Shown: positions 2,736-64,000 of the stretch, one piece after another
Position numbering within the stretch: the stretch's first letter is position 1
Layout of the letters: each line of letters starts with the position of its first letter
Assembly: GCA_964354545.1 (NCBI GenBank)
Contig: CAYHAE010000001.1
Location: 364-64,363 of the forward strand
DNA: 64,000 nt
DNA from: an uncultured Planctomycetia bacterium
GTDB lineage: Bacteria; Omnitrophota; Gorgyraeia; 2-01-FULL-45-10; JAHFGN01
Direction: 5' to 3'
The notes under the pieces: model-generated
The model's input: the letters and a program-made list of their open reading frames with translations, nothing else
Told to the model about the DNA's origin: nothing
Database searches by the model: none
Translations under genes and position numbers: made by a program

Positions 2736-3551
2736 ATGCCTGCATCAAAAATACGGCTTGGGATAATCGGGTACGGGAATATGGGGGAGGCGATCGTCCG
2801 CCGCCTGCGGGAGACAGCATCCCGGAATTTTTCGATTGCCGTGAGCGAACGAAACCCCAAAAAAAGGAAACGGGTTCAGGCAAGGTACGGGGTGCGGATT
2901 ATCCGGGATAATGCCTCCCTTGCAAGAACATGCGAGGTGATCGTCCTCGCCGTGAAACCTCATGACATCGACGGAGTGCTCCGTGAGATCTCGGGTCCGC
3001 ACCTTGCCTCAAGGCTTATCATATCGATTGCAGCAGGGGTGACTACGCGGAGGATAGAAGGCCTTCTCAAGGCCAGAGCGCCTGTCGTGAGAGGGATGCC
3101 CAACATGCCCGCGCTCGTAGGGGAAGGTATATCGGCGATGTGCGGGGGCAGGTTCGCGAAGGCCCCGCACTTAAAGATAGCGAGGGCCGTCTTCTCGTCC
3201 ATAGGCGATGTGGTGGAGATAGGCGAGGCCTCTATGGATGCGGTGACGGCGGTAAGCGGAAGCGGGCCGGCGTACTTTTTCTATCTCGTCCAGTGCATCA
3301 TCGAGGCGGCAAAGGAGATGGGCCTTCGCGAACGAGACGCGGCAGAGCTCGCGGTAAAGACCGCCCTCGGCAGTGCGCACGTCCTGGACAAGACAGGAGA
3401 ATCCCCCGAGGCCTTGCGGCGCAGGGTGGCGTCGAAGGGCGGAACGACAGAGGCGGCATTTAAGGTATTTGAGTCGAAGGGTCTCAAGGGCATCGTGAAG
3501 GCAGGGGTGAAGGCTGCCCGGGACAGGGCGAGGGAATTGAACGCGAAGTGA
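2736..3551 (+). CDS. proC: Pyrroline-5-carboxylate reductase.
   Basis: N-terminal Rossmann motif IGIIGYGNMGEAI. The 271-aa length is typical, and the gene is adjacent to yggS and yggT as in many genomes. Confidence 0.9.
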   Translation: MPASKIRLGIIGYGNMGEAIVRRLRETASRNFSIAVSERNPKKRKRVQARYGVRIIRDNASLARTCEVIVLAVKPHDIDGVLREISGPHLASRLIISIAAGVTTRRIEGLLKARAPVVRGMPNMPALVGEGISAMCGGRFAKAPHLKIARAVFSSIGDVVEIGEASMDAVTAVSGSGPAYFFYLVQCIIEAAKEMGLRERDAAELAVKTALGSAHVLDKTGESPEALRRRVASKGGTTEAAFKVFESKGLKGIVKAGVKAARDRARELNAK

Positions 3552-3703: not shown

Positions 3704-4003
3704 ATGTTCGTCCTCGGCAATTTCGTAAGCGCAGTCGCGGTGATCGTGAATTATGCGTTCATTGTGCTGAATTGGCTTATCATCATCCGGGCACTCATAA
3801 GCTGGGTCAATCCGGACCCCTATAATTTGATCGTGCAGTTCCTCTATGCGACCACGGAGCCGATATTAGAGCCATTCAGGAGGATCGTGCCGACCTATCG
3901 TATCGGCATCGATCTCTCGCCGATCCTTGCCATCGTCGTCATCTGGTTCCTCCAGCGTTTTCTTGTGAAGACATTGTTCGACATCGCGGCGAGGCTCTCG
4001 TGA
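3704..4003 (+). CDS. yggT: YggT-family membrane protein.
   Basis: A 99-aa, two-TM protein with the ISWVNPDPYN motif typical of YggT/Ycf19. Confidence 0.85.
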   Translation: MFVLGNFVSAVAVIVNYAFIVLNWLIIIRALISWVNPDPYNLIVQFLYATTEPILEPFRRIVPTYRIGIDLSPILAIVVIWFLQRFLVKTLFDIAARLS

Positions 4004-4218
4004 AGTACGCGGTGACCGTCCGACCGCGCTCCTCGCAGGATAAGGTGGTGAGAAATTCGGACGGCACGCTGAAGGTCTATGTGAGAGCGGCGCCGGTGGA
4101 CGGGAAGGCGAACGAGCGCGTCCGGGAGGTCCTCGCGGATGATTTCGGCGTGAGCAAGTCCGCGGTGAAGATCGTGAGAGGAGAGCGGTCAAAAGAGAAG
4201 GTGGTAGAAATATGGTGA
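4000..4218 (+). CDS. DUF167 (YggU-family) protein.
   Basis: A 72-aa protein with the pattern ...VRAAPVDGKANE...L..FGV.KS.V.IV.G..S..K.V.I typical of DUF167. It overlaps yggT by 4 nt. Confidence 0.8.
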   Translation: MKYAVTVRPRSSQDKVVRNSDGTLKVYVRAAPVDGKANERVREVLADDFGVSKSAVKIVRGERSKEKVVEIW

Positions 4219-5087
4219 AGGGAAAGATCGGGATCATTGGCGGGAGCGGCCTGTACGATATCGAGGGAATAGAGAACGTGAGGAGCGTGAGGGTGGAGAC
4301 CCCTTTCGGCTTCCCTTCAGATGAGTACACGATCGGGACGCTCGAGGGCAGGGACGTTGTCTTTCTGCCCCGGCATGACAAGGCCCACAGGCTGCTCCCG
4401 AGCGAGGTCAACTACAGGGCCAATATCTACGGCATGAAGAAGCTCGGCGTGGAGAGGATCATCTCCATCTCTGCGGTGGGAAGCCTGAGGAAAGAGCTGA
4501 AGCCGCTCGACATCGTGGTGCCTGACCAGTTCGTCGACAGGACGAATCAGGCGCGGCAGATGACGTTCTTCGGCGGCGGCATCGCGGCCCACATCGCCTT
4601 TGCAGAACCCGTCTGTCCCGTGCTCGCGAAGACGCTCGTCGAATGCGGGAGGTCTGTCGGGGCGACGATGCACGAGAAGGGTACCTACATCAATATGGAA
4701 GGGCCTGCGTTCTCGACAAAGGCGGAATCGTACCTCTACAAGAAGATCTGGGGGATGGACGTCATCGGCATGACGAATATGCCCGAGGCAAAGCTCTCGA
4801 GGGAGGCGGAGATATGTTATGCGACGCTCGCGTGTGTCACCGATTACGACTGCTGGCATCTGGACGAGACAGTCAAGAGCGTATCGATCGACCTCATCAT
4901 ACAGAACCTGCGCAAGAACGTCGAGGTGTCAAAGAGGATAGTAAAAGAGGCCGTCCGGAGGATCCCCGAGGGGAGGGACTGCCTCTGCGCGACGGCGCTC
5001 GAGAATGCGATCGTGACCGCACGCGACAAGATCTCGCCTCAGGTGAAGAAGCGGCTGGACATCATCATTGGACGATACGTCGACTAG
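4212..5087 (+). CDS. mtnP: S-methyl-5'-thioadenosine phosphorylase (PNP/MTAP family).
   Basis: N-terminus [15 protein letters not shown] with ...FLPRHG...[15 protein letters not shown]. This is an MTAP-like purine nucleoside phosphorylase. Confidence 0.8.
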
Positions 5088-5103: not shown

Positions 5104-7899
5104 ATGGACTACAAGGGTACCCTTAATCTGCCGAGAACGGACTTTCCGATGAAAGCGGACCTCCCGAACCGCGAGCCGAAGATCCTGAAGCGGTGGGAGC
5201 AGATTGACGTATACCGTCTTATCAGGCAGCGCGCAAAGGGCTCGAAGAAGTTCGTGCTGCACGACGGCCCCCCGTACGCGAACGGCGATATCCACATGGG
5301 CCACGCGCTGAACAAGATCTTGAAGGACATCGTGGTGAAATACAAGACGATGCGCGGGTTCGACTCGCCCTATGTGCCCGGCTGGGACTGCCATGGACTT
5401 CCCGTTGAGCACCAGCTCTTCAAAGAGCTGAAGATGACAAAGTACGACATCGACCAGGTCGAATTCAGAAAGAAGGCATACGATTACGCGATGAAGTACG
5501 TGGAGATACAGAAGGCCCAGTTCAAAAGGCTCGGCGTCTTCGGCGACTGGGAGAGGCCGTACCTGACCCTGTCGAAGGGCTACGAAGCGGATATCGTTCG
5601 ATCCTTCGGAAGTCTCGTCAGGGACGGGTACATCTACAGGGACCTTAAACCGGTGAACTGGTGCGCGACGTGCGAGACCGCGCTCGCAGAGGCAGAGGTC
5701 GAATACGAGGATAAGACCTCGCCGTCGATCTATGTGAGGTTCAGGCTGAAGCGCGAACATGGCGCCGGGTTGGATCCGCGGTTTGCGGAGGACCGGATCT
5801 ATTTTGTCATCTGGACCACGACGCCGTGGACGCTCCTCGCGAACGTGGCGGTCGCGGTACACCCCGCGCATGAGTACGTCGTCGTGCGTCCCCGCGCCGG
5901 GGAGCTGTATGTGGCGGCGAAGGGCCTCCTCGAAGCGACGATGGCGAAACTGGGCGTGAAAGAGTTCAAGGTCGAGAAGACGGTAAAGGGAAGGGGCCTT
6001 GACGGGCTCGAATGCATGCATCCGTTCATCGATCGGCCCTCGAAGGTCGTCCTCGCAGAGTACGTTTCCATGGAAGAGGGGACAGGGTGCGTCCACACTG
6101 CACCGGGGCACGGCCAGGAGGACTACCTTACGGGTAAGAAATACAATCTCTCCACGATCATGCCGGTCGACTCCAGAGGCAGGTTTGACTCGACATGCGG
6201 CGAGTTCAGCGGCATGCATGTTGATAAGGCTAACGGCGCCATCATCCAAAAGCTGAAGGGATCAGGCGAGCTGTTGCATGATGAAGCAGTGAGCCACTCG
6301 TATCCTCACTGTTGGAGGTGCAAAAAGCCGATCATATTTCGGGCGACGGAGCAGTACTTTATGAACGTCGACCACAGGGCCCTGAGGGGCCGGCTGCTCG
6401 ATTCTATACGCGGAGGGGTGAAATGGATCCCTTCGCAGGGCGAGGCGAGGATACGAGCGATGGTCGAATCGAGGCCCGACTGGTGCCTTTCCAGACAGAG
6501 GTACTGGGGTGTGCCTATCGTCGCGTTCCGCTGCGAGAATCCGCAGTGCAAAGAGGTGCTGCTGGACCACGACGTTATAGAGCACGTCGTAGCCATGGTC
6601 GAGCGCGAAGGTTCTGACATCTGGTTTTCGAAGACAGCCGAAGAGATGCTGCCCGAGGGTGCCCGCTGCAAGAAGTGCGGTTCAACGAAATGCGCAAAAG
6701 AGGACGACATCATCGACGTCTGGTTCGATTCAGGGGTGAGCCACCAGGCGGTGTTGAAGAGGAACGGGGACCTCGACTATCCATGCGAGCTGTATCTCGA
6801 AGGGTCCGACCAGCACCGAGGGTGGTTCCAATCCGCCCTCATCACCTCCATGGCGATCGACGGTATCCCGCCCTACAGGACCGTCCTCACTCATGGGTTC
6901 GTCGTCGACGGCGAAGGCAAGAAGATGTCGAAGTCCCTGGGGAACGTTATATCGCCCCAGGAGGTGATGAGGCGGTATGGCGCTGACATCCTGAGGCTCT
7001 GGGTCGCGTCGAGCGACTATTCCGAAGACGTGAGGCTCTCCGATGAGATACTCACGAGGCTCGCCGACGCGTATCGTAAGATCCGCAATACCTATAAATA
7101 CCTCTTGAGCAACCTCTATGATTTCGACCCTGACGCGGATGGCGTGGGCCGCGAAGACATGGTAGACCTCGACAGGTGGATGCTCTCCAGGCTCAGCCTC
7201 CTCATACGGGAGACGGCGGGATACTACGAAGAGTACGCGTTCCATAAGATTTTCAAGAGCGTCTACAGTTTTTGCATATACGAAATTTCATCGATTTATC
7301 TGGACGTCCTAAAAGATAGGATGTATACTTTCAGGGCGAACTCGAGAGAGCGGAGGTCCGGCCAGACCGCGAGCCACGCGGTGCTCGTCAACCTTCTGAA
7401 GATAATGGCCCCGATCATGCCGTTCACGTGCGACGAGGCGTGGGGCTACCTCAGGGTGAAAAATAAGGCAGAGACCATCCACGCGGAGCGATGGCCTGAC
7501 GAGAAAGAGTATTCCGCGTGGTCCGATGAGGGCCTCCTCGCAACATGGAATGTGCTGCTGGAAACGAGGGAGAAGGTCCTCAAGGCCCTTGAGGAAAAGC
7601 GCCAGGCAGGTGAGATCGGGAGCGGCCTCGAAGCGCGGATCGTCCTCTCGTCGCGCGACGGGAAGATCGCGGCCCTTTTGGAAAAGTACAGGGCGCAGCT
7701 TCCGTACCTGTTTATAGTCTCCCAATTGGAACTCGTTGCGCCGCAAGGCGCGGCGGGGAGCGGGGAGGAGAAGGTCTCTGTCCTCGTAGAGCGTGCGCAT
7801 GGCAAGAAATGCGAGAGGTGCTGGAATTGGAGCGATTCCGTGGGACACAGCGCGCGTCATCCGACGATCTGCTCGCGATGCGTGAGCGCGATAGAATAA
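5104..7899 (+). CDS. ileS: Isoleucine--tRNA ligase.
   Basis: Class I HIGH motif ([13 protein letters not shown]), KMSKS motif and a C-terminal zinc-finger CxxC...CxxC. I chose the MDYKG start at 5104. The track start at 5068 overlaps mtnP. Confidence 0.95.
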
Positions 7900-14540: not shown

Positions 14541-16301
14541 ATGAGACAGGAGGCACTCACGCTTTTCATCACCATACTGTTCGTCTTTCTTCTGCTGGGC
14601 CTCATCTATGCTCAGGTGCTGAACCACGACGCCTACTACGCTCAATCGCAAAATAATTTCATAAGGATAGTTCCCATCGACGGCCCGCGCGGGAAGATCT
14701 TTGACAGGAACGGCCGCATCATGGTGAACAACAGGCTCTCCCTCGACGTATCGTGCATCTATCAGGAGATAGGCCGCAAGGACCTGTTCATCAAGACGCT
14801 GGGTACGGTGCTTGGTACATCGCCAAGAGGCGTCATTCGGTGTCTGGAAAAGGCGAGCGAAAGGCCCTTTGCCCCCGTGACGCTGCAGGAGGATGTCGAG
14901 AAGGAGCGGGCGATAAGCCTGGAGGAACTCGAACCGGGCGTGCGGGGAGCGGTGATCGAGCCGAAATCAAAGAGGGATTACGTCTACGGATCCGCAGCGG
15001 GGCACATATGCGGATACCTTGGGGAAGTAAATGAAGAAGAGCTCGACCGGCTCAGGGGCTACGGGTACAGGATGCGGGACCTCATAGGCAGGAGCGGCCT
15101 GGAGAAATATTACAATAATTATCTCACGGGTATCGACGGGGGCGAGCAGATAGAAGTAGACGCGAGGGGGAGGCGCGTGAGCCTCCTCGGCCTCAAGGAG
15201 CCAAAGGCGGGGAAAGACCTATGGCTTACCATCGATGCCCGGCTCCAGCAGCTCGCACAGAATCTCCTCGAAGGGAAGACGGGGGCGATCGTGCTGATGG
15301 ACCCGAGGAACGGCGAGGTCCTCGCGCTCGCGAGCAGTCCCGCCTACGATCCCAACACATTTGTGAGGCCGAGAGAATTTGCGGAGCGCATGAGGCTGGT
15401 TGAGGACAGGTCCAAGCCGTTCTTGAACAGGGCGATAGGCGGTGTCTACGCGCCGGGTTCGGTATTCAAGATAGTGACCGCATGCGGAGCGCTCGAAACG
15501 AAAAAGATCTCACGGTATACCCGTTTCACCTGCACAGGAACGTATAAGCTCGGCGGCACTACGTTTCACTGTTGGAAAGAGGGCGGCCATGGGCCCCAGG
15601 ACATCATTGACGCGATCAAAAATTCCTGCAATGTGTTTTTCTATACGGCCGGCAAGAGCCTTGGCGTTGACGCGCTGGAGTCGTACGCGCTGCGGTTCGG
15701 TTTCGGCAAACCAACGGGAATAGACCTGCCTGAGGAGGCCTCCGGCCTTGTCCCCGGCAGGCTGTGGAAGATGCTCGCCAAGAAAGAGGCATGGTACGAT
15801 GGGGAGACGGTCAACTTGGCAATAGGGCAGGGATATCTCATGGTGACGCCGCTCCAGGTGCTCAGGATGACGGCGTGCATCGCGAACGGCGGGAAACTCG
15901 TCCGCCCCTTCATGGTGAAACGCATCGGCCCTGTAGAGGTGGGCAGCTCGCGGCTTCAAGACCTTGGGTTGTCGGCCGAGACCGTAAGGATCATAAAAGA
16001 AGGGATGCTCAAGGTCGTGAACGACGATTCCGGCACGGGCAGGCGCGCGAAAGTGGACGGTCTCGTAATAGGAGGGAAGACGGGAACGGCCCAGAATCCC
16101 CAGGGCGTGCCCCATGCGTGGTTCATCGGGTTTGCCCCAGCGGAAAACCCTTCGTTATCGGTCGTGGTCATGGTCGAGCACGGAGGGAGGGGCGGGTATG
16201 AACCCGCGGAGATCGCCCACGATATATTCAAGGCTGCGCGCGAGATGGGCTATCTGCCCGCTTCAGGTAAGGCAGTATCGGACGTCGCATCGCAGAGGTA
16301 A
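14541..16301 (+). CDS. mrdA: Penicillin-binding protein 2 (peptidoglycan D,D-transpeptidase MrdA).
   Basis: N-terminal TM segment, the PBP dimerisation domain, and transpeptidase motifs SVFK, SCN and KTGTA. Confidence 0.9.
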   Translation: MRQEALTLFITILFVFLLLGLIYAQVLNHDAYYAQSQNNFIRIVPIDGPRGKIFDRNGRIMVNNRLSLDVSCIYQEIGRKDLFIKTLGTVLGTSPRGVIRCLEKASERPFAPVTLQEDVEKERAISLEELEPGVRGAVIEPKSKRDYVYGSAAGHICGYLGEVNEEELDRLRGYGYRMRDLIGRSGLEKYYNNYLTGIDGGEQIEVDARGRRVSLLGLKEPKAGKDLWLTIDARLQQLAQNLLEGKTGAIVLMDPRNGEVLALASSPAYDPNTFVRPREFAERMRLVEDRSKPFLNRAIGGVYAPGSVFKIVTACGALETKKISRYTRFTCTGTYKLGGTTFHCWKEGGHGPQDIIDAIKNSCNVFFYTAGKSLGVDALESYALRFGFGKPTGIDLPEEASGLVPGRLWKMLAKKEAWYDGETVNLAIGQGYLMVTPLQVLRMTACIANGGKLVRPFMVKRIGPVEVGSSRLQDLGLSAETVRIIKEGMLKVVNDDSGTGRRAKVDGLVIGGKTGTAQNPQGVPHAWFIGFAPAENPSLSVVVMVEHGGRGGYEPAEIAHDIFKAAREMGYLPASGKAVSDVASQR

Positions 16302-16813
16302 ATAACGAGGCTCCTATCCGCCTCATGTAAAGCTGTATCGGATGTCGCATCGAAAAGGTAAATAACAAGGCTCCTATCCGCCTCATGTAAAGCTGTATCG
16401 GATGTCGCATTGCGGAGGTAACGCGCGAGGCTCCAGTCCCGACACCAGTGGAAAGCGAAGCGATCCCCGAAATCTTTCAGATTTCAGGGGAGACGTCGCA
16501 TCTCCCTCGACTTCGCTCGGGATGGTTCGTCCCTCGATATAACTCGGGATCGAATCCTGAGCCTGTCGAAGGATTCGAGGGATGGTGAGCAAAGTCGAAC
16601 CAGCAGAGGCAAAGAGCGAGGCTCCTATCCGCCTCCGGCAAAGCTCCATCGGATGTCGCATAGCAGAGGTAAATAACAAGGCTCCTATCCGCCTCATGTA
16701 AAGCTGTATCGGATGTCGCATTGCGGAGGTAACGCGCGAGGCTCCTATCCCGACCCCAGAGGAGTGGCGAAGCGGGATGTCGCATCGCAGAGGCAAAGAG
16801 CGAGGCTCCTATG
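16262..16813. repeat. Tandem array of about five or six degenerate 60-bp units. It runs from the last codons of mrdA to the rodA start codon and is interrupted by a 170-bp structured insert.
   Basis: The unit GTAAATAACGAGGCTCCTATCCGCCTCATGTAAAGCTGTATCGGATGTCGCATCG[CA/AA]GAG appears adjacent at 16300 and 16360, and again at 16610-16800. The copies are all variants of the ancestral mrdA-stop/rodA-RBS junction. Confidence 0.8.
16437..16612. repeat. Hairpin-rich insert (element A) that carries the 27-nt core CCCGAAATCTTTCAGATTTCAGGGGAG.
   Basis: It interrupts one 60-bp unit. Compare the intact unit at 16720-16790. The core at about 16466-16492 is identical to 29608-29634. Confidence 0.5.
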
Positions 16814-17908
16814 ATACGAAGGGAATTGTTGAGGGATTTCGACGCGACGTTATTGCTTGCGGCGCTCTTGATATTTATGACGGGCCTTGTCTTTCTGTCA
16901 AGCGCCACATCGACGAGGTACCAGGAGCTGAACCTCGCGTTTGTGTCACGGCAGGTCACATTTGCGATATGTGCGCTCGTCGTCATGCTCGTTGTCGTCA
17001 ACGTCAATTATCAGAGGTTCATAGATATCGCATGGGTCTTCTACCTCATCAACATCGCGGCGCTTGTTGTCTTGATGTTCGTCGGGCACTCGAGGCTCGG
17101 CGCGCAGAGGTGGTTCGAGGTCGGTTCATTCACGGTACAGCCGTCCGAGTTCATCAAGCTCACGCTCATTATCGTCCTTGCATCGTACATTAACGGAAAG
17201 AAAGGGCAGCTGGGCAGAGTGGAAAATCTGGTCATACCCTTTCTCCTCTTCCTCGTCCCGTTCGCATTGGTGGTCCTGCAGCCGGACCTCGGAACGGCAC
17301 TCCTCCTCGTCCCCATCCTCTTTGCGATGCTCTACGTCGGAGGCGCACGCGGGAAGCACCTCGCCTTCGCAGGAGGAATCGGGCTTCTCTGCATGCCCGT
17401 CTTCTGGCATTTTCTGAGGGACTACCAGAAACAGAGGCTCCTGGTCTTCATCAATCCAAATATAGATCCCCTCGGCGCGGGTTACACAATAATCCAGTCA
17501 AAGATCGCGGTGGGGTCGGGAGGGTTATTCGGAAAGGGGTGGCTTGCGGGGACGCAGAACCAGCTCAATTTCCTGCCCGAGAGGCACACGGACTTCATAT
17601 TCTCAGTCGTCGGCGAGGAGTGGGGTTTTTTCGGCAGCGCACTTCTCGTCCTTATGTACTACTTTCTCATACGGAGGATATTTCGCATTGCGTGCCTCAC
17701 GAGCGATTTGAGCGGGGCATTGATCGCATCAGGCATAGGTATCCTCCTCGCCCTTCAGGTAGCGATAAACATCGGCATGACGATCGGCCTCATGCCGGTG
17801 GTGGGGATACCGCTCGTGCTCGTGAGCTATGGCGGCTCAAGCCTACTCACGACGTTCGCGGCGATAGGGCTCGTCCTCAACGTGGGCATGAGGCGTTCGA
17901 CGTTTTGA
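16811..17908 (+). CDS. rodA: Rod shape-determining protein RodA (SEDS family).
   Basis: A 10-TM FtsW/RodA/SpoVE-family protein immediately after mrdA. Confidence 0.9.
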   Translation: MIRRELLRDFDATLLLAALLIFMTGLVFLSSATSTRYQELNLAFVSRQVTFAICALVVMLVVVNVNYQRFIDIAWVFYLINIAALVVLMFVGHSRLGAQRWFEVGSFTVQPSEFIKLTLIIVLASYINGKKGQLGRVENLVIPFLLFLVPFALVVLQPDLGTALLLVPILFAMLYVGGARGKHLAFAGGIGLLCMPVFWHFLRDYQKQRLLVFINPNIDPLGAGYTIIQSKIAVGSGGLFGKGWLAGTQNQLNFLPERHTDFIFSVVGEEWGFFGSALLVLMYYFLIRRIFRIACLTSDLSGALIASGIGILLALQVAINIGMTIGLMPVVGIPLVLVSYGGSSLLTTFAAIGLVLNVGMRRSTF

Positions 17909-28546: not shown

Positions 28547-28648
28547 TTATAATGGAACCCAGTATCTGTTAAAGAGAGGGGGTGGAAAGGGGATAATTTA
28601 AAGACTTTTTTTATCGGACCCATTTTTGGGAAAAAGGAGGGATGAGAC

Positions 28649-28984
28649 ATGGTCAGAAGACATAAAAAGGGATTCACGCTTGTTGAAATCATGATAGTCG
28701 TCGCAATTATAGGTCTATTGGCTGCCATCGCTATCCCGAACTTTGTGAGGGCGAGAGAGACGGCAGAAAGAAATGCGTGTATCGCAAACCTGAAGCAGAT
28801 ACAGGGTGCAGTTCAGGTGTGGGCGATCGACACGAGTGCGGGGTCCACTTCAACGCCAACCGCGACATCAGATCTCGCGAACTACATAAAGACATGGCCG
28901 AAGTGCAAAACAACTACGTATGCGATACCCGCAGTCAGTGCAAACCCCGCGTGTCCAACCACCGGCACTGGACACAACCTCTAA
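28649..28984 (+). CDS. Type IV pilin (prepilin N-terminal cleavage/methylation domain), copy 1.
   Basis: Class III signal MVRRHKKG|FTLVEIMIVVAIIGLLAAIAIP with a Cys pair in the C-terminal region. An RBS (AGGAGG) precedes it. Confidence 0.85.
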   Translation: MVRRHKKGFTLVEIMIVVAIIGLLAAIAIPNFVRARETAERNACIANLKQIQGAVQVWAIDTSAGSTSTPTATSDLANYIKTWPKCKTTTYAIPAVSANPACPTTGTGHNL

Positions 28985-29019
28985 TCTTAAGGGGTAATCC
29001 ATTTTTCGTGCGAGGTGCG

Positions 29020-29057
29020 AAAAGGACGGCTATCGTATTATTGCCGTCCTTTTTGCT
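29020..29057 (+). terminator. Rho-independent terminator after pilin copy 1.
   Basis: AAGGACGGC-loop-GCCGTCCTT followed by TTTTT. Confidence 0.6.
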
Positions 29058-29180
29058 TTGGGTATTTCGAAAATTATTTAATTATTATCAGAGCACAACA
29101 GCTGTAAATGAAAGGGGGTGAGGACCGGCCTAAAGACTTTTTTTATCGGACCCATTTTTGGGAAAAAGGAGGGATGAGAC

Positions 29181-29516
29181 ATGGTCAGAAGACATAAAAA
29201 GGGATTCACGCTTGTTGAAATCATGATAGTCGTCGCAATTATAGGTCTATTGGCTGCCATCGCTATCCCGAACTTTGTGAGGGCGAGAGAGACGGCAGAA
29301 AGAAATGCGTGTATCGCAAACCTGAAGCAGATACAGGGTGCAGTTCAGGTGTGGGCGATCGACACGAGTGCGGGGTCCACTTCAACGCCAACCGCGACAT
29401 CAGATCTCGCGAACTACATAAAGTCATGGCCGAAGTGCAAAACAACGACGTATGCGATACCCGCAGTCAGTGCAAACCCCACGTGTCCAACCACCGGCAC
29501 TGGACACAACCTTTAA
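29181..29516 (+). CDS. Type IV pilin, copy 2.
   Basis: The protein differs from copy 1 at 2 of 111 residues (T to S and A to T). The upstream leader and RBS are also duplicated. Confidence 0.85.
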   Translation: MVRRHKKGFTLVEIMIVVAIIGLLAAIAIPNFVRARETAERNACIANLKQIQGAVQVWAIDTSAGSTSTPTATSDLANYIKSWPKCKTTTYAIPAVSANPTCPTTGTGHNL

Positions 29517-29518
29517 TC

Positions 29519-29715
29519 CTGTTATCAGAGTTCCACGAGCTACGCCCGTGGGTTGCACCCGCGGACGTAGACCGCGGGTGCATGGCGGAGCGGTCCGGGA
29601 TTTAATTCCCGAAATCTTTCAGATTTCAGGGGAGCGGTTGCCGCACAAGGAGAGTATTCAGTGCGGGTACCGCGGGCTGCGTGCCAACGGCAGGCGTACC
29701 CGTGGGGCTCCAGGC
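29519..29715. mobile_element. Structured insert of about 197 bp (element B) in the 3' UTR of pilin copy 2. It carries the same 27-nt core as element A.
   Basis: Copy 1 reads TAATC|TTAAGGGG. Copy 2 reads TAATC[197 bp]TTAAGGGG. The insert is hairpin-dense (TGCACCCGCGG/CCGCGGGTGCA, CCACG/CGTGG, GCCGCAC/GTGCGG) and has the core at 29608-29634. Confidence 0.5.
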
Positions 29716-29749
29716 TTAAGGGGTAATCCATTTTTCGTGCGAGGTGCGG

Positions 29750-29790
29750 AAAGGACGGCTATCATATTATTGCCGCCCTTTTCTTTTTAG
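29750..29790 (+). terminator. Terminator after pilin copy 2 (slightly degraded duplicate of the copy-1 terminator).
   Basis: AAAGGACGGC-loop-GCCGCCCTTTTCTTTTT. Confidence 0.5.
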
Positions 29791-29905
29791 GACAGCGCGA
29801 TAAACGTTTTTCATAATGCAATCGTGATATCGGGGCCACGTATCTGTTGAAGAGTAAGGCGCTTTTTGACTTCACCCGATCCTAGGAGGGAAGGGGGGAT
29901 GAGAC

Positions 29906-30241
29906 ATGGTCAGAAGACATAAAAAGGGATTCACGCTTGTTGAAGTCATGATAGTCGTTGCAATCATAGGTCTATTGGCTGCCATCGCCATCCCCAACTT
30001 TGTAAGGGCGAGAGAGACGGCAGAAAAGAGCGCGTGTATATCAAACCTGAAGCAGATACAGGGTGCGGTCGAAATGTGGGTACTCGATACGAGCGCGGCA
30101 TCTTCGTCAACGGCGTCTGGAACATCAGACCTTGTGAATTACATAAAGGTATGGCCAAAGTGTAAGGCGAGCACATATGCGATACCTGCGGCAGACGGAA
30201 CGCCCGTGTGTCCGAACAGCATAGGCGGACACAACCTCTAA
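29906..30241 (+). CDS. Type IV pilin, divergent third paralog.
   Basis: Same N-terminal domain as copies 1 and 2. The variable C-terminal half is divergent but the Cys pair is conserved. Confidence 0.85.
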   Translation: MVRRHKKGFTLVEVMIVVAIIGLLAAIAIPNFVRARETAEKSACISNLKQIQGAVEMWVLDTSAASSSTASGTSDLVNYIKVWPKCKASTYAIPAADGTPVCPNSIGGHNL

Positions 30242-32289: not shown

Positions 32290-32334
32290 CAGGGCAGGCG
32301 CTGTCCGTCATACGAAAGGCGCAGTCCCGCCCTT

Positions 32335-33012
32335 TTGGGATGCAGGGTTAATACATTATCCAAAAGGGTGGGACGTCCTGCAAGAGGCTATAGAGCAAAG
32401 GACAGCACATCGGTGAACATACCGTTTCTTGAAGAACTTCTGAAAGATAACGAAAAGAGGGCGATCCTCGTGCTCGCGGTCCTCGCTGCGGTGCTCATCG
32501 CGTATCTTTTGTTCGTAGCGGTACCCCAATTGAGAGACCTGATACTCGTGTCGAGCGAGTTCGTCACGCTGGAAAAGGAGATGCGCTCCACCGAACAAGA
32601 GATACAGAAGACGGCATATTACCAGAAGACGTTGAATGAATTGAAAGAAAAGTTTTCTCAATATCAGACGTACCTTTTGGGGCACGAGGGAGAAATACCG
32701 GTTCTCATGGAGAAGGTCTCTCGCATGGCGCGGGAATCGGGAGTGAAGATATTGGGTATCAAACCCGTGAACGTACAGGAAGGGCCTGCGGAGGCGAGGG
32801 GAGCGCTTTGCAGGGAGATCTCGATACTTACGGTCGCGCGGTCGGGATATCATGAGCTCGGCACATTCGTGAACCACATTGAGAGCGCGGATATTTTTTT
32901 GAGGGTTGCGGACCTCAGGTTAAGGTTCAATAAGACTTCCCCTAAGAAACACGACGTGAGCCTCTCGATCGTTTCCTATTTGTTCATGGGGGGAAAGGGT
33001 GGTCTTGAGTAA
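32335..33012 (+). CDS. pilO: PilO-like pilus assembly protein.
   Basis: TM segment followed by a coiled coil and the periplasmic PilO fold, in the conserved position. The start is uncertain. An in-frame GTG near 32412 with an upstream AAGGA is possible. Confidence 0.65.
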   Translation: MGCRVNTLSKRVGRPARGYRAKDSTSVNIPFLEELLKDNEKRAILVLAVLAAVLIAYLLFVAVPQLRDLILVSSEFVTLEKEMRSTEQEIQKTAYYQKTLNELKEKFSQYQTYLLGHEGEIPVLMEKVSRMARESGVKILGIKPVNVQEGPAEARGALCREISILTVARSGYHELGTFVNHIESADIFLRVADLRLRFNKTSPKKHDVSLSIVSYLFMGGKGGLE

Positions 33013-41408: not shown

Positions 41409-41420
41409 CGGCAAATAACG

Positions 41421-41452
41421 TTCCGCCGGAGGCGGATCCGCCTTCGGCGGAA
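41421..41452. repeat. Perfect 32-bp palindrome TTCCGCCGGAGGCGGATCCGCCTTCGGCGGAA (REP-like). Copy 1 of 2.
   Basis: Self-complementary. A second copy is at 53810-53841. Both are followed by AAAGTGCAA. Confidence 0.7.
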
Positions 41453-41668
41453 AAGTGCAAAGCGTCCGCTACTAAATCATCAGCGGACGCCCGCCAAAGT
41501 TCGCTACTAATGCTTCAGCGAACCCGCTGATGCATTAATGGCGGGCTTTGTGGCGGGCGAAAAACGAAAAACTGTGGTGTCCCTCCGGGACCTAAATGTA
41601 AAGGTCGCGGGAGCGACTCCACCGTTTTGCGTTTTGCGCTTTTAGTTTTTCGCTGGTATGCGCATATC

Positions 41669-53791: not shown

Positions 53792-53809
53792 CGGCAAATG
53801 CAGGAAGTG

Positions 53810-53841
53810 TTCCGCCGAAGGCGGATCCGCCTTCGGCGGAA
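53810..53841. repeat. Second copy of the REP-like palindrome TTCCGCCGAAGGCGGATCCGCCTTCGGCGGAA.
   Basis: Matches 41421-41452 at 31 of 32 positions. Confidence 0.7.
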
Positions 53842-53879
53842 AAGTGCAATGTGTAAAGTGTAAGATGTGATCAGATACC

Positions 53880-60421: not shown

Positions 60422-60423
60422 GA

Positions 60424-60524
60424 GGTTACATAAGGTTCCATCAGGTTACATAACGTTACATAAGGTTACGAAAGTGGGCAACCTTATGGAACATGAGGGA
60501 ACCTTACGTAACATTATGGAACGT
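60424..60524. promoter_or_regulatory. Periodic array of 13-bp sites with core GTTACATAAGGTT: three direct copies and two or three inverted copies at 10- and 20-bp spacing.
   Basis: Direct sites start at 60424, 60444 and 60454. Inverted sites AACCTTATGGAAC and AACCTTACGTAAC start at 60480 and 60500, with one more at 60514. The array fills the spacer between the two HTH_17 genes. Confidence 0.6.
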
Positions 60525-63483: not shown

Positions 63484-64000
63484 TGAACCTAGAGATGACA
63501 CCAGCCTTACGCAAGACATTTCGCCCGTCGGTCTATGGTCTATGGTCTTTAGTCTTTAGTCTTGCGTCGCTAGTCGTTGGTCTATGGTCCATAGTCTTTA
63601 GTCTTTTTCTGGCCTTCGGTCTCTCCACCGCACGCGCCGACACCGTCATAAAGCGAGACGGCCGCGAGCTGAAGGGGATCATCGTCGAGGATTACTACGA
63701 CAGGATCGTCCTCTCAACGCCTGACGGCGAGGTCCAGGTCCTGAAGTCCGATGTTCGGGAATTATCGTACGACTCTGAAGAAGACAATCTGATAAAACTC
63801 GGAGACCTCGCAAAAGAGAGGAGCAATTACGAAGCCGCCTACTCATACTATGAAAAAGCATTCAACATGAATCCCAATTCGAAACCCGCAAAAGACGGAA
63901 TGATGTACCTCAAGGGGTTCCTCTTCCGAAAAGAAGAGGCGAAGAAGGAAGAGGACATTAAGCGCCGCACAGAGTTCGAACGATACCAGGTTGCCGGGAT
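63484..64000 (+). CDS. 5' part of a secreted or membrane protein (hydrophobic leader, then a possible TPR-like region). It runs off the window end.
   Basis: ATG at 63484. The leader LWSLVFSLASLVVGLWSIVFSLFLAFGLSTARA precedes a soluble region. The frame is still open at 64000. Confidence 0.45.

Follow-up and report, generated by a model that had tools for sequence, protein, structure and literature searches.

A 27-nt hairpin in two spacers of an uncultured Omnitrophota bacterium and the dispersed double-hairpin family around it

Small palindromic repeats are known from several settings, and the closest to the element described here are the repetitive extragenic palindromic (REP) sequences with the bacterial interspersed mosaic elements (BIMEs) (Di Nocera et al. 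2013, PMC3733652), the REP doublets forming hairpins (REPINs) described in PMC3116915, and the miniatures of IS200/IS605. The element in question is a 27-nt hairpin, CCCGAAATCTTTCAGATTTCAGGGGAG, which occurs twice in a 64,000-nt stretch (the window; positions 364 to 64,363 of contig CAYHAE010000001.1, assembly GCA_964354545.1) from an uncultured bacterium of the Omnitrophota. In other genomes the hairpin forms part of a module of 63–66 nt, in which a first hairpin (HP1) is joined by a linker, ACTWAGT, to a second (HP2) that is approximately the reverse complement of the first. The family exists, with a module anatomy of its own, covarying stems, precise insertions and nesting within hairpins; both window copies are fragments of the module, and both sites that hold them are derived. 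With a probability of about 0.6, the 27-mer is the HP2 arm of a dispersed, REP/REPIN/BIME-like, small non-autonomous insertion unit.

The comparison with REPs and BIMEs is the closest in general form. REPs are extragenic, multi-copy, imperfect palindromes of 20–40 bp (PMC3733652), a range that includes the present hairpin, which measures 26–29 nt and has an 11-bp stem and one bulged base. In both cases most units lie as close inverted dimers that fold separately or as one long hairpin, dimers are embedded in longer palindromes, singletons are remnants of dimers, and clusters mix several repeat types (all documented for REPs in PMC3733652). The module differs in that it has no unpaired GTAG or CGTC tail, that a fixed 7-nt linker, ACTWAGT, connects its units, that its hairpin is identical in many different metagenome-assembled genomes (MAGs) rather than in one genus, and that its copy number in this window is low.

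Pseudomonas REPINs and their RAYT transposases (PMC3116915, PMC3337134) offer a second parallel. There, too, two inverted REPs constitute the replicating unit, which is non-autonomous, its hairpin is kept by compensatory change, and singlets are decayed doublets; the module is likewise an inverted doublet able to form one long hairpin. It differs from REPINs in its spacer, which is 7 nt instead of tens of nucleotides, in the prominence of insertion into the loops of other hairpins, and in that no RAYT gene was found for it in the window and the fetched loci.

The miniatures of IS200/IS605, which move by single-strand 'peel and paste' with the Y1 HUH transposase TnpA (PMC6006769), share with the module imperfect subterminal hairpins with an unpaired base, hairpins at the ends of the element and the absence of a target-site duplication, the last two being seen at loci L002 and L007 described below. 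Unlike these miniatures, the module shows no conserved target tetranucleotide at its two clean sites, is only about 65 nt long with two hairpins and nothing between them, and has no TnpA in sight. A likeness in form only is offered by the double-hairpin elements of Allomyces mitochondrial DNA (Paquin, Laforest and Lang 2000, cited in PMC2800124) and by other organelle hairpin repeats. These, too, are short, dispersed, intergenic elements of two adjacent hairpins, with evidence of mobility in the absence of flanking duplications; their hosts, by contrast, are fungal and sponge organelle genomes.

The shared hairpin and its family

The 27-mer is exact at 16466-16492 and at 29608-29634, on the + strand in each case, and these are its only two copies in the window, no further copy being found there at up to three mismatches. 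Chance expectation is 0, and none of 100 shuffles of the window gave any match, so the shared core noticed in the preliminary description holds. Similarity between the two sites extends over 37 nt (16463-16499 against 29605-29641, 33 of 37 positions or 89% identity); outside these 37 nt the two inserts could not be aligned and their flanks are unrelated, in keeping with the view that the hosts are otherwise different. The stem had been read as GAAATCT/AGATTTC around a 3-nt loop. Loop and core stand, but the stem is longer, comprising 11 bp with a bulged A (CCCC+GAAATCT / AGATTTC + A bulge + GGGG). Folded as DNA, the hairpin has a free energy of -9.6 kcal/mol and a z score of -5.6.

Downstream, the window hairpins continue as AGACGTCG or AGCGGTTG. 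An intrinsic terminator was rejected, there being no T run after the hairpin and no call from terminator scans; an integron attC or dif-like site was also considered and rejected.

The hairpin with a free loop (pattern CCGAAATCTNNNAGATTTCAGGG), scanned against contigs of one genome per species, was found in 22 stretches of other genomes. In 20 of the 22 it is the second of two tandem hairpins, in the order HP1, linker, HP2; the remaining two, L001 and L017 (stretches are given L numbers where they need to be told apart), share the hairpin alone and are probably chance matches. Metagenome contigs add seven further occurrences of the exact 27-mer, and one MAG, DAOVKU01, holds six exact HP2 sites on five contigs. 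The preliminary description would have dropped the idea of a family had the 27-mer occurred at two places only with nothing else in common, and these 22 genome and 7 metagenome places show the opposite. The consensus of HP1 is CCYN-(A/T)-GRAATT..loop..AATTYC-NRGG and that of HP2 is CCCS-GAAAW..loop..WTTTC-(A/T)-SGGG. The HP2 hairpin is flanked by ACTWAGT, ATTAAGT or ATTTAAT on one side and by AAAC, AG or GC on the other.

A covariance model of the 63-nt module, R1, finds extra module copies in the same loci that do not contain the searched sequence and are in that sense non-ascertained. In these copies the HP2 stem covaries, with CT/AG, CC/GG, TT/AA and TC/GA pairs, and the HP2 foot varies between CCCC/GGGG and CCCG/CGGG. 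A proposed rule, that both hairpins carry a bulged A on the same strand, failed in the non-ascertained copies, where the bulge is A or T. R1 recognises the opposite strand nearly as well (90.6 against 69.5 bits in one case), so HP1 and HP2 are related as inverted forms of a single imperfect palindrome. When L005:178-310 is folded to minimum free energy, HP1 pairs with HP2, a single long hairpin thus being possible.

In the window, R1 gives copy 1 (16466-16492) 36 bits, the HP2 half alone being matched, and copy 2 (29608-29634) 45 bits; a filter-free search of the 64 kb found no third copy, the next match scoring 10.8 bits with an E value of 0.7. The module that had been suspected behind the 27-mer is real in other genomes; the window holds only fragments of it. 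Since family similarity is limited to 33–36 nt at one site and 40 nt at the other, the window copies are solo or truncated arms, a condition known from REP singletons left over from dimers (PMC3733652).

A sign that the module behaves as a unit comes from sites at which it is present in one copy of a sequence and absent from others. In L002 a 66-nt module lies between GCGA and AAAATTT at a site that is empty in seven other copies of the same ~450-nt element. In L007 the loop of an HP1 is split by a 65-nt module, and this HP1 is intact in L013, L020 and L021. The first C of HP1 and the last G of HP2 mark the exact ends of both inserts, neither of which is flanked by a target-site duplication. 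These two clean insertion sites, GCGA^AAAA and TTCG^TAGA, have no evident target tetranucleotide in common. Alignment of the ~450-nt element copies shows that single hairpins, too, appear as indels.

Modules also nest within other hairpins. An HP2-like hairpin carries the module in its loop in L016 and L020, and in nine copies of a ~125-nt arrangement called type A (L003, L004, L005, L010, L011, L012, L015, L018 and L019; five of them in one MAG) it stands at the tip of an outer helix of about 19 bp. Compensatory changes are found in 12 of the 19 pairs of that helix, and it contains a conserved tandem G-A/A-G internal loop. For 11 of 23 modules, flank pairing is stronger than at the 5th percentile of mismatched-flank controls; this control is inflated by the mutual likeness of type A flanks.

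Modules are intergenic and may face either way; where the genes on both sides are co-directional, ten are co-oriented and six opposed. A strand test on the type A outer stem was uninformative, G-T and C-A mismatches being about equally frequent. The genes beside modules are ordinary housekeeping genes, save for one open reading frame (ORF) with HNH and AP2 domains that lies between two modules. With its double-hairpin anatomy, precise insertions and nesting, the family supports the suggestion of a REP-like or small non-autonomous mobile module.

Searches of existing collections returned nothing of this kind. Rfam at the gathering score, run over the window and 20 loci, found only tmRNA and tRNA elsewhere and nothing relevant, and at E up to 1 it gave no match for the two inserts and one type A copy. 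The hairpin had no match in viral contigs, and blastn of the type A element had none among plasmid and phage records. No literature description of such repeats in Omnitrophota was found.

Two host sites in the window

The first copy lies between the genes for PBP2 (14541-16301) and RodA (16811-17908), which agrees with the mrdA-rodA context proposed earlier; relatives of the window RodA bear Omnitrophota or Omnitrophica names. Tandem Repeats Finder places here a + strand array at 16258-16812 (repeat family D4), in which about eight 60-nt units repeat the junction between the mrdA 3' end and the rodA leader, and this array is the host of both insertions described next. Among the relatives found, the two nearest have RodA proteins that are 77% and 72% identical, and in both of them mrdA and rodA share a 4-nt overlap without any spacer. 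The whole 510-nt mrdA-rodA spacer is therefore lineage-specific. Each array unit comprises the final mrdA codons with their stop and then the rodA leader, in which the Shine-Dalgarno sequence is preserved but the ATG has become ATC.

Affine alignment of the interrupted unit (16395-16630) with its uninterrupted sister (16706-16815) opens two gaps, of 28 nt and 100 nt, and scores 139 against 88 for the best single gap. Because two gaps are preferred, what had been taken for a 176-nt host is better described as two adjacent, unrelated insertions. The first (16462-16489, + strand, with ends ambiguous by about 3 nt) is 28 nt long and essentially a lone hairpin, and by nhmmer and blastn the similarity of the site to other genomes is confined to 16463-16495/98, or 33–36 nt. 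It is followed by 13 array bases kept between the insertions (16490-16502, + strand), which read GAGACGTCGCATC where the sister has GGGATGTCGCATC and match it at 11 of 13 positions. The second insertion (16503-16602, + strand) is a 100-nt palindrome whose ends, CGACTTCGCTC and GAGCAAAGTCG, pair with each other. In the centroid fold it carries a hairpin, CCCTCGACTTCGCTCGGG, at 16504-16521, of a type that recurs twice in the Omnitrophota locus L008 (5919-5938 and 5965-5983). The bases at 16437-16461 are part of a variant array unit that is likewise present in insert-free form. The 176-nt stretch as a whole folds only modestly better than shuffled sequence (z score -2.7).

The second copy stands among three pilin genes with the N_methyl motif that lie between PilC and PilM, a context that had also been recognised from the sequence. 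The tandem pilin genes span 28599-30241; copies 1 and 2 share 300 nt at 100% identity and copy 3 is 80% identical, while the downstream tails of copies 1 and 2 are only 88% identical. Between the stop codon of pilin copy 2 (29514-29516) and a terminator-like hairpin lies a composite palindromic insert of 197 nt (29519-29715, + strand), which is absent behind pilin copy 1 and whose ends, CCACGAGCTACGCC and GGCGTACCCGTGG, pair with each other. The terminator-like hairpin (29746-29789, + strand), read from the sequence as an A-tract, stem and T-tract, is common to pilin copies 1 and 2; its homologue behind copy 1 is inverted repeat I9, and the conserved 84-nt tail is repeat D8. The 197-nt palindrome was added after, or apart from, the pilin duplication. 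Its insertion point is the loop of a weak hairpin, ACCTCT-AATC^TTA-AGGGGT.

This insert adopts a closed multi-branch fold (free energy -106.7, z score -6.1). Near its middle, nhmmer finds a 40-nt module fragment (29595-29634, + strand) composed of CCGGG, which is the last 5 nt of HP1, the linker ATTTAAT, HP2 and AG. It is 97.5% identical to L008 and L029 over the 40 nt, and the rest of HP1, including its 5' half, is missing. The other parts of the insert do not recur in the window or the fetched loci, and a putative terminal repeat, CCACGNNNTACGCC, is unique, with no second occurrence. A search of the window and loci for other parts of the inserts found one 20-nt hairpin in common, with L008. 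The two hosts are mosaics of several different small palindromes, not two members of one 170–200-bp element.

Other repeats lie around the modules. Window and L008 share two further hairpin types, CCCTCGNCTTCGCTCGGG (window 16504-16521) and CCGCCnnAGGCGGATC, both of which adjoin modules in L008. The latter, which is the motif of a second double-hairpin repeat, occurs twice in that locus, at 5827 and 6118, and the repeat itself, GTTCCGCCGGAGGCGGATCCGCCTTCGGCGGAAAAGTGCAA, is present in the window at 41420-41465 and 53809-53854 with 93% identity. The ~450-nt element in which the L002 module sits, called type D, is a conserved non-coding element around the module that is present in L002, L008 and L025-L029 and varies by hairpin indels. 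L008 holds two inverted copies of it (1-200 and 5380-5800), 5.4 kb apart. Its tail looks promoter-like (TTGCGGCGGCGAAAAATTTATAAAAGG). The element has no Rfam match, and an nhmmer profile of the 450 nt, run against the window, matched the 33-nt and 40-nt pieces alone.

In DAOVKU01 a segment of ~120-150 nt lies beside type A elements in opposite orientations at different loci (L003 ~2668-2820, L005 ~277-427, L018 ~3285-3405), with 87–92% identity, and is bounded by short inverted repeats, GCTCTTTTGGC and GCCAAAAGAGC; it may represent an invertible segment or else a further small palindromic element. An inverted repeat in the window at 32324-32374, GTCCCGCCCTTTTGG-N21-CCAAAAGGGTGGGAC, contains the motif CCCGCCCTTTTGG, which also occurs at L005 299-311 and at L018 230-242 and 3338-3350, and these two loci hold as well a ~120-nt segment found in either orientation. 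In L014 (3817-4661) two directly oriented modules flank the HNH_3 and AP2 ORF noted above, which is of the homing-endonuclease type (3912-4547). Near the end of the window, 60423-60522 and 63531-63606 are clusters of short tandem and inverted repeats, in which a 10-nt unit, AGGTTACATA, is accompanied by inverted arms of 43 nt, and 7/21-nt GTCTTTA units also occur.

Competing readings and a possible route of insertion

The preliminary description left room for a structured RNA, the likeliest of the rivals. On it, the hairpin or the whole module would be a functional RNA, forming the core of a small structured non-coding RNA or else serving 3' untranslated and intercistronic regions as a protein-binding or nuclease-blocking structure. 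Both window copies lie in sense orientation within transcription units, no promoter- or terminator-like site separates gene from insert, the stems covary, and REPs are known to act as RNA hairpins (PMC3733652). The type A form also speaks for it, being a 125-nt three-way junction that has a conserved tandem G-A/A-G internal loop and 12 pairs of its outer helix in covariation. The same family, however, occurs in both orientations relative to flanking genes, R1 matches its two strands almost equally, and the near equality of G-T and C-A mismatches in the outer stem means that neither strand is favoured. The nesting of the module in copies of itself and its appearance as clean indels likewise tell against an RNA, the window copies are too truncated to form the module, and Rfam gave no relevant match at the gathering score for the window and 20 loci or at E up to 1 for both inserts and a type A copy. 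A functional RNA is accordingly an unlikely account of the family, and the structured-RNA option raised at the outset found no support.

Less likely again is that the hairpin is the double-stranded binding site of a dimeric regulator or recombinase, such as a palindromic operator or recombination site. Its near-perfect palindrome, GAAATCT-TTC-AGATTTC, and its identity across many genomes would suit such a site, but the copies lie mostly downstream of or between genes instead of at promoters, stem positions covary, which is unexpected for a base-specific operator, a bulged base is kept in both hairpins, and nesting and clean indels would go unexplained; taken together these features make a double-stranded site improbable. 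A solitary CRISPR-repeat-like unit is more improbable still and was rejected. Some HP2 copies read GTCCCC...GGGGAAAC, and the hairpin followed by GAAAC in type A, or by ATTAAG after HP1, resembles Cas6-type repeats in form only. Each public stretch has one match and never an array, the window shows no periodic spacing, and the window copies end in GGGGAG, not GAAAC. As for chance or local copying, for example gene conversion, without any wider family, the presence of just two copies in 64 kb with unrelated flanks might have invited it; that account is already refuted by the zero chance expectation, by external matches that exceed the 27-mer over different extents (33–36 nt against 40 nt) and by the well-documented family in other genomes.

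The favoured reading, a small non-autonomous insertion unit of REP/REPIN/BIME type, has to be weighed against several results that count the other way. A regular-expression search for RAYT-like and HUH + Y motifs over the window and the fetched loci found none. Pfam returned no transposase for 10 ORFs beside modules, which are housekeeping apart from the HNH and AP2 ORF, and, among the 25 commonest of 128 families in 107 further ORFs, no shared transposase either; there only a syntenic Vsr pair recurs. The GTAG or CGTC tail of the two REP super-families is absent from both strands of the hairpin flanks. With two copies in 64 kb, the family may be rare or extinct in the source genome. Precise gain of a palindrome is formally indistinguishable from its precise loss, and the compensatory changes in the stems could reflect arm-to-arm templated repair in place of selection. 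The apparent spread beyond Omnitrophota, to Planctomycetota, Ratteibacteria and others, is read from MAG titles. For one such contig, labelled 'Candidatus Scalindua rubra', the nearest named relatives of its DnaK (L015 1518-3407) are labelled Dehalococcoidia and Deltaproteobacteria, with no planctomycete among them; its planctomycete label is thus unconfirmed, and the contig may be mis-binned or the DnaK an atypical paralogue. Since the module has no tail and no demonstrated RAYT, it should not be filed in the GTAG/CGTC REP families.

Because no such tag is present and no transposase was found, the mobilising mechanism is one that we infer from the form of the element. Hairpin-ended elements that insert without duplication have a known route, which is an HUH/Y1 transposase (PMC3116915, PMC6006769). 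By analogy, the module would move as folded single-stranded DNA, mobilised in trans by an HUH/Y1-type transposase like RAYT or the TnpA of IS200/IS605. Its insertions end precisely at the feet of its two hairpins, leave no target-site duplication and often lie in the loop of a pre-existing hairpin, so that nested, mosaic palindrome clusters build up, as in BIMEs. Both window sites are inside transcription units, so their hairpins would also form in mRNA, where they could affect decay or the translational coupling of mrdA and rodA.

A bolder version of this reading is tentative and rather doubtful. The module would here represent a class of very small mobile elements not described before, which would insert with no target duplication, prefer hairpin loops, be moved by an as yet unrecognised enzyme and have spread between Omnitrophota and other uncultured phyla. 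Some derivatives may have taken on roles as structured, functional nucleic acids, and candidates for such recruitment are the 125-nt type A three-way junction and the ~450-nt type D element.

Meaning for Omnitrophota spacers

To our knowledge, the non-coding DNA of uncultured Omnitrophota is essentially undescribed. Within the window itself the consequence is a modest one, namely two remnant hairpins in transcribed spacers, one in an essential cell-shape operon and one in a pilin cluster. For the group as a whole, the family provides a concrete, searchable repeat, through R1 or through the motif CCCS-GAAAW..WTTTC-W-SGGG joined by ACTWAGT. This repeat can mark recent insertions and help to trace the mobilising enzyme, and it offers an explanation for unusual structured spacers like the one that separates mrdA from rodA and the one that follows the pilin gene. 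Should the module indeed target hairpin loops and cause no duplication, single-strand transposition could be studied in it as a compact system.

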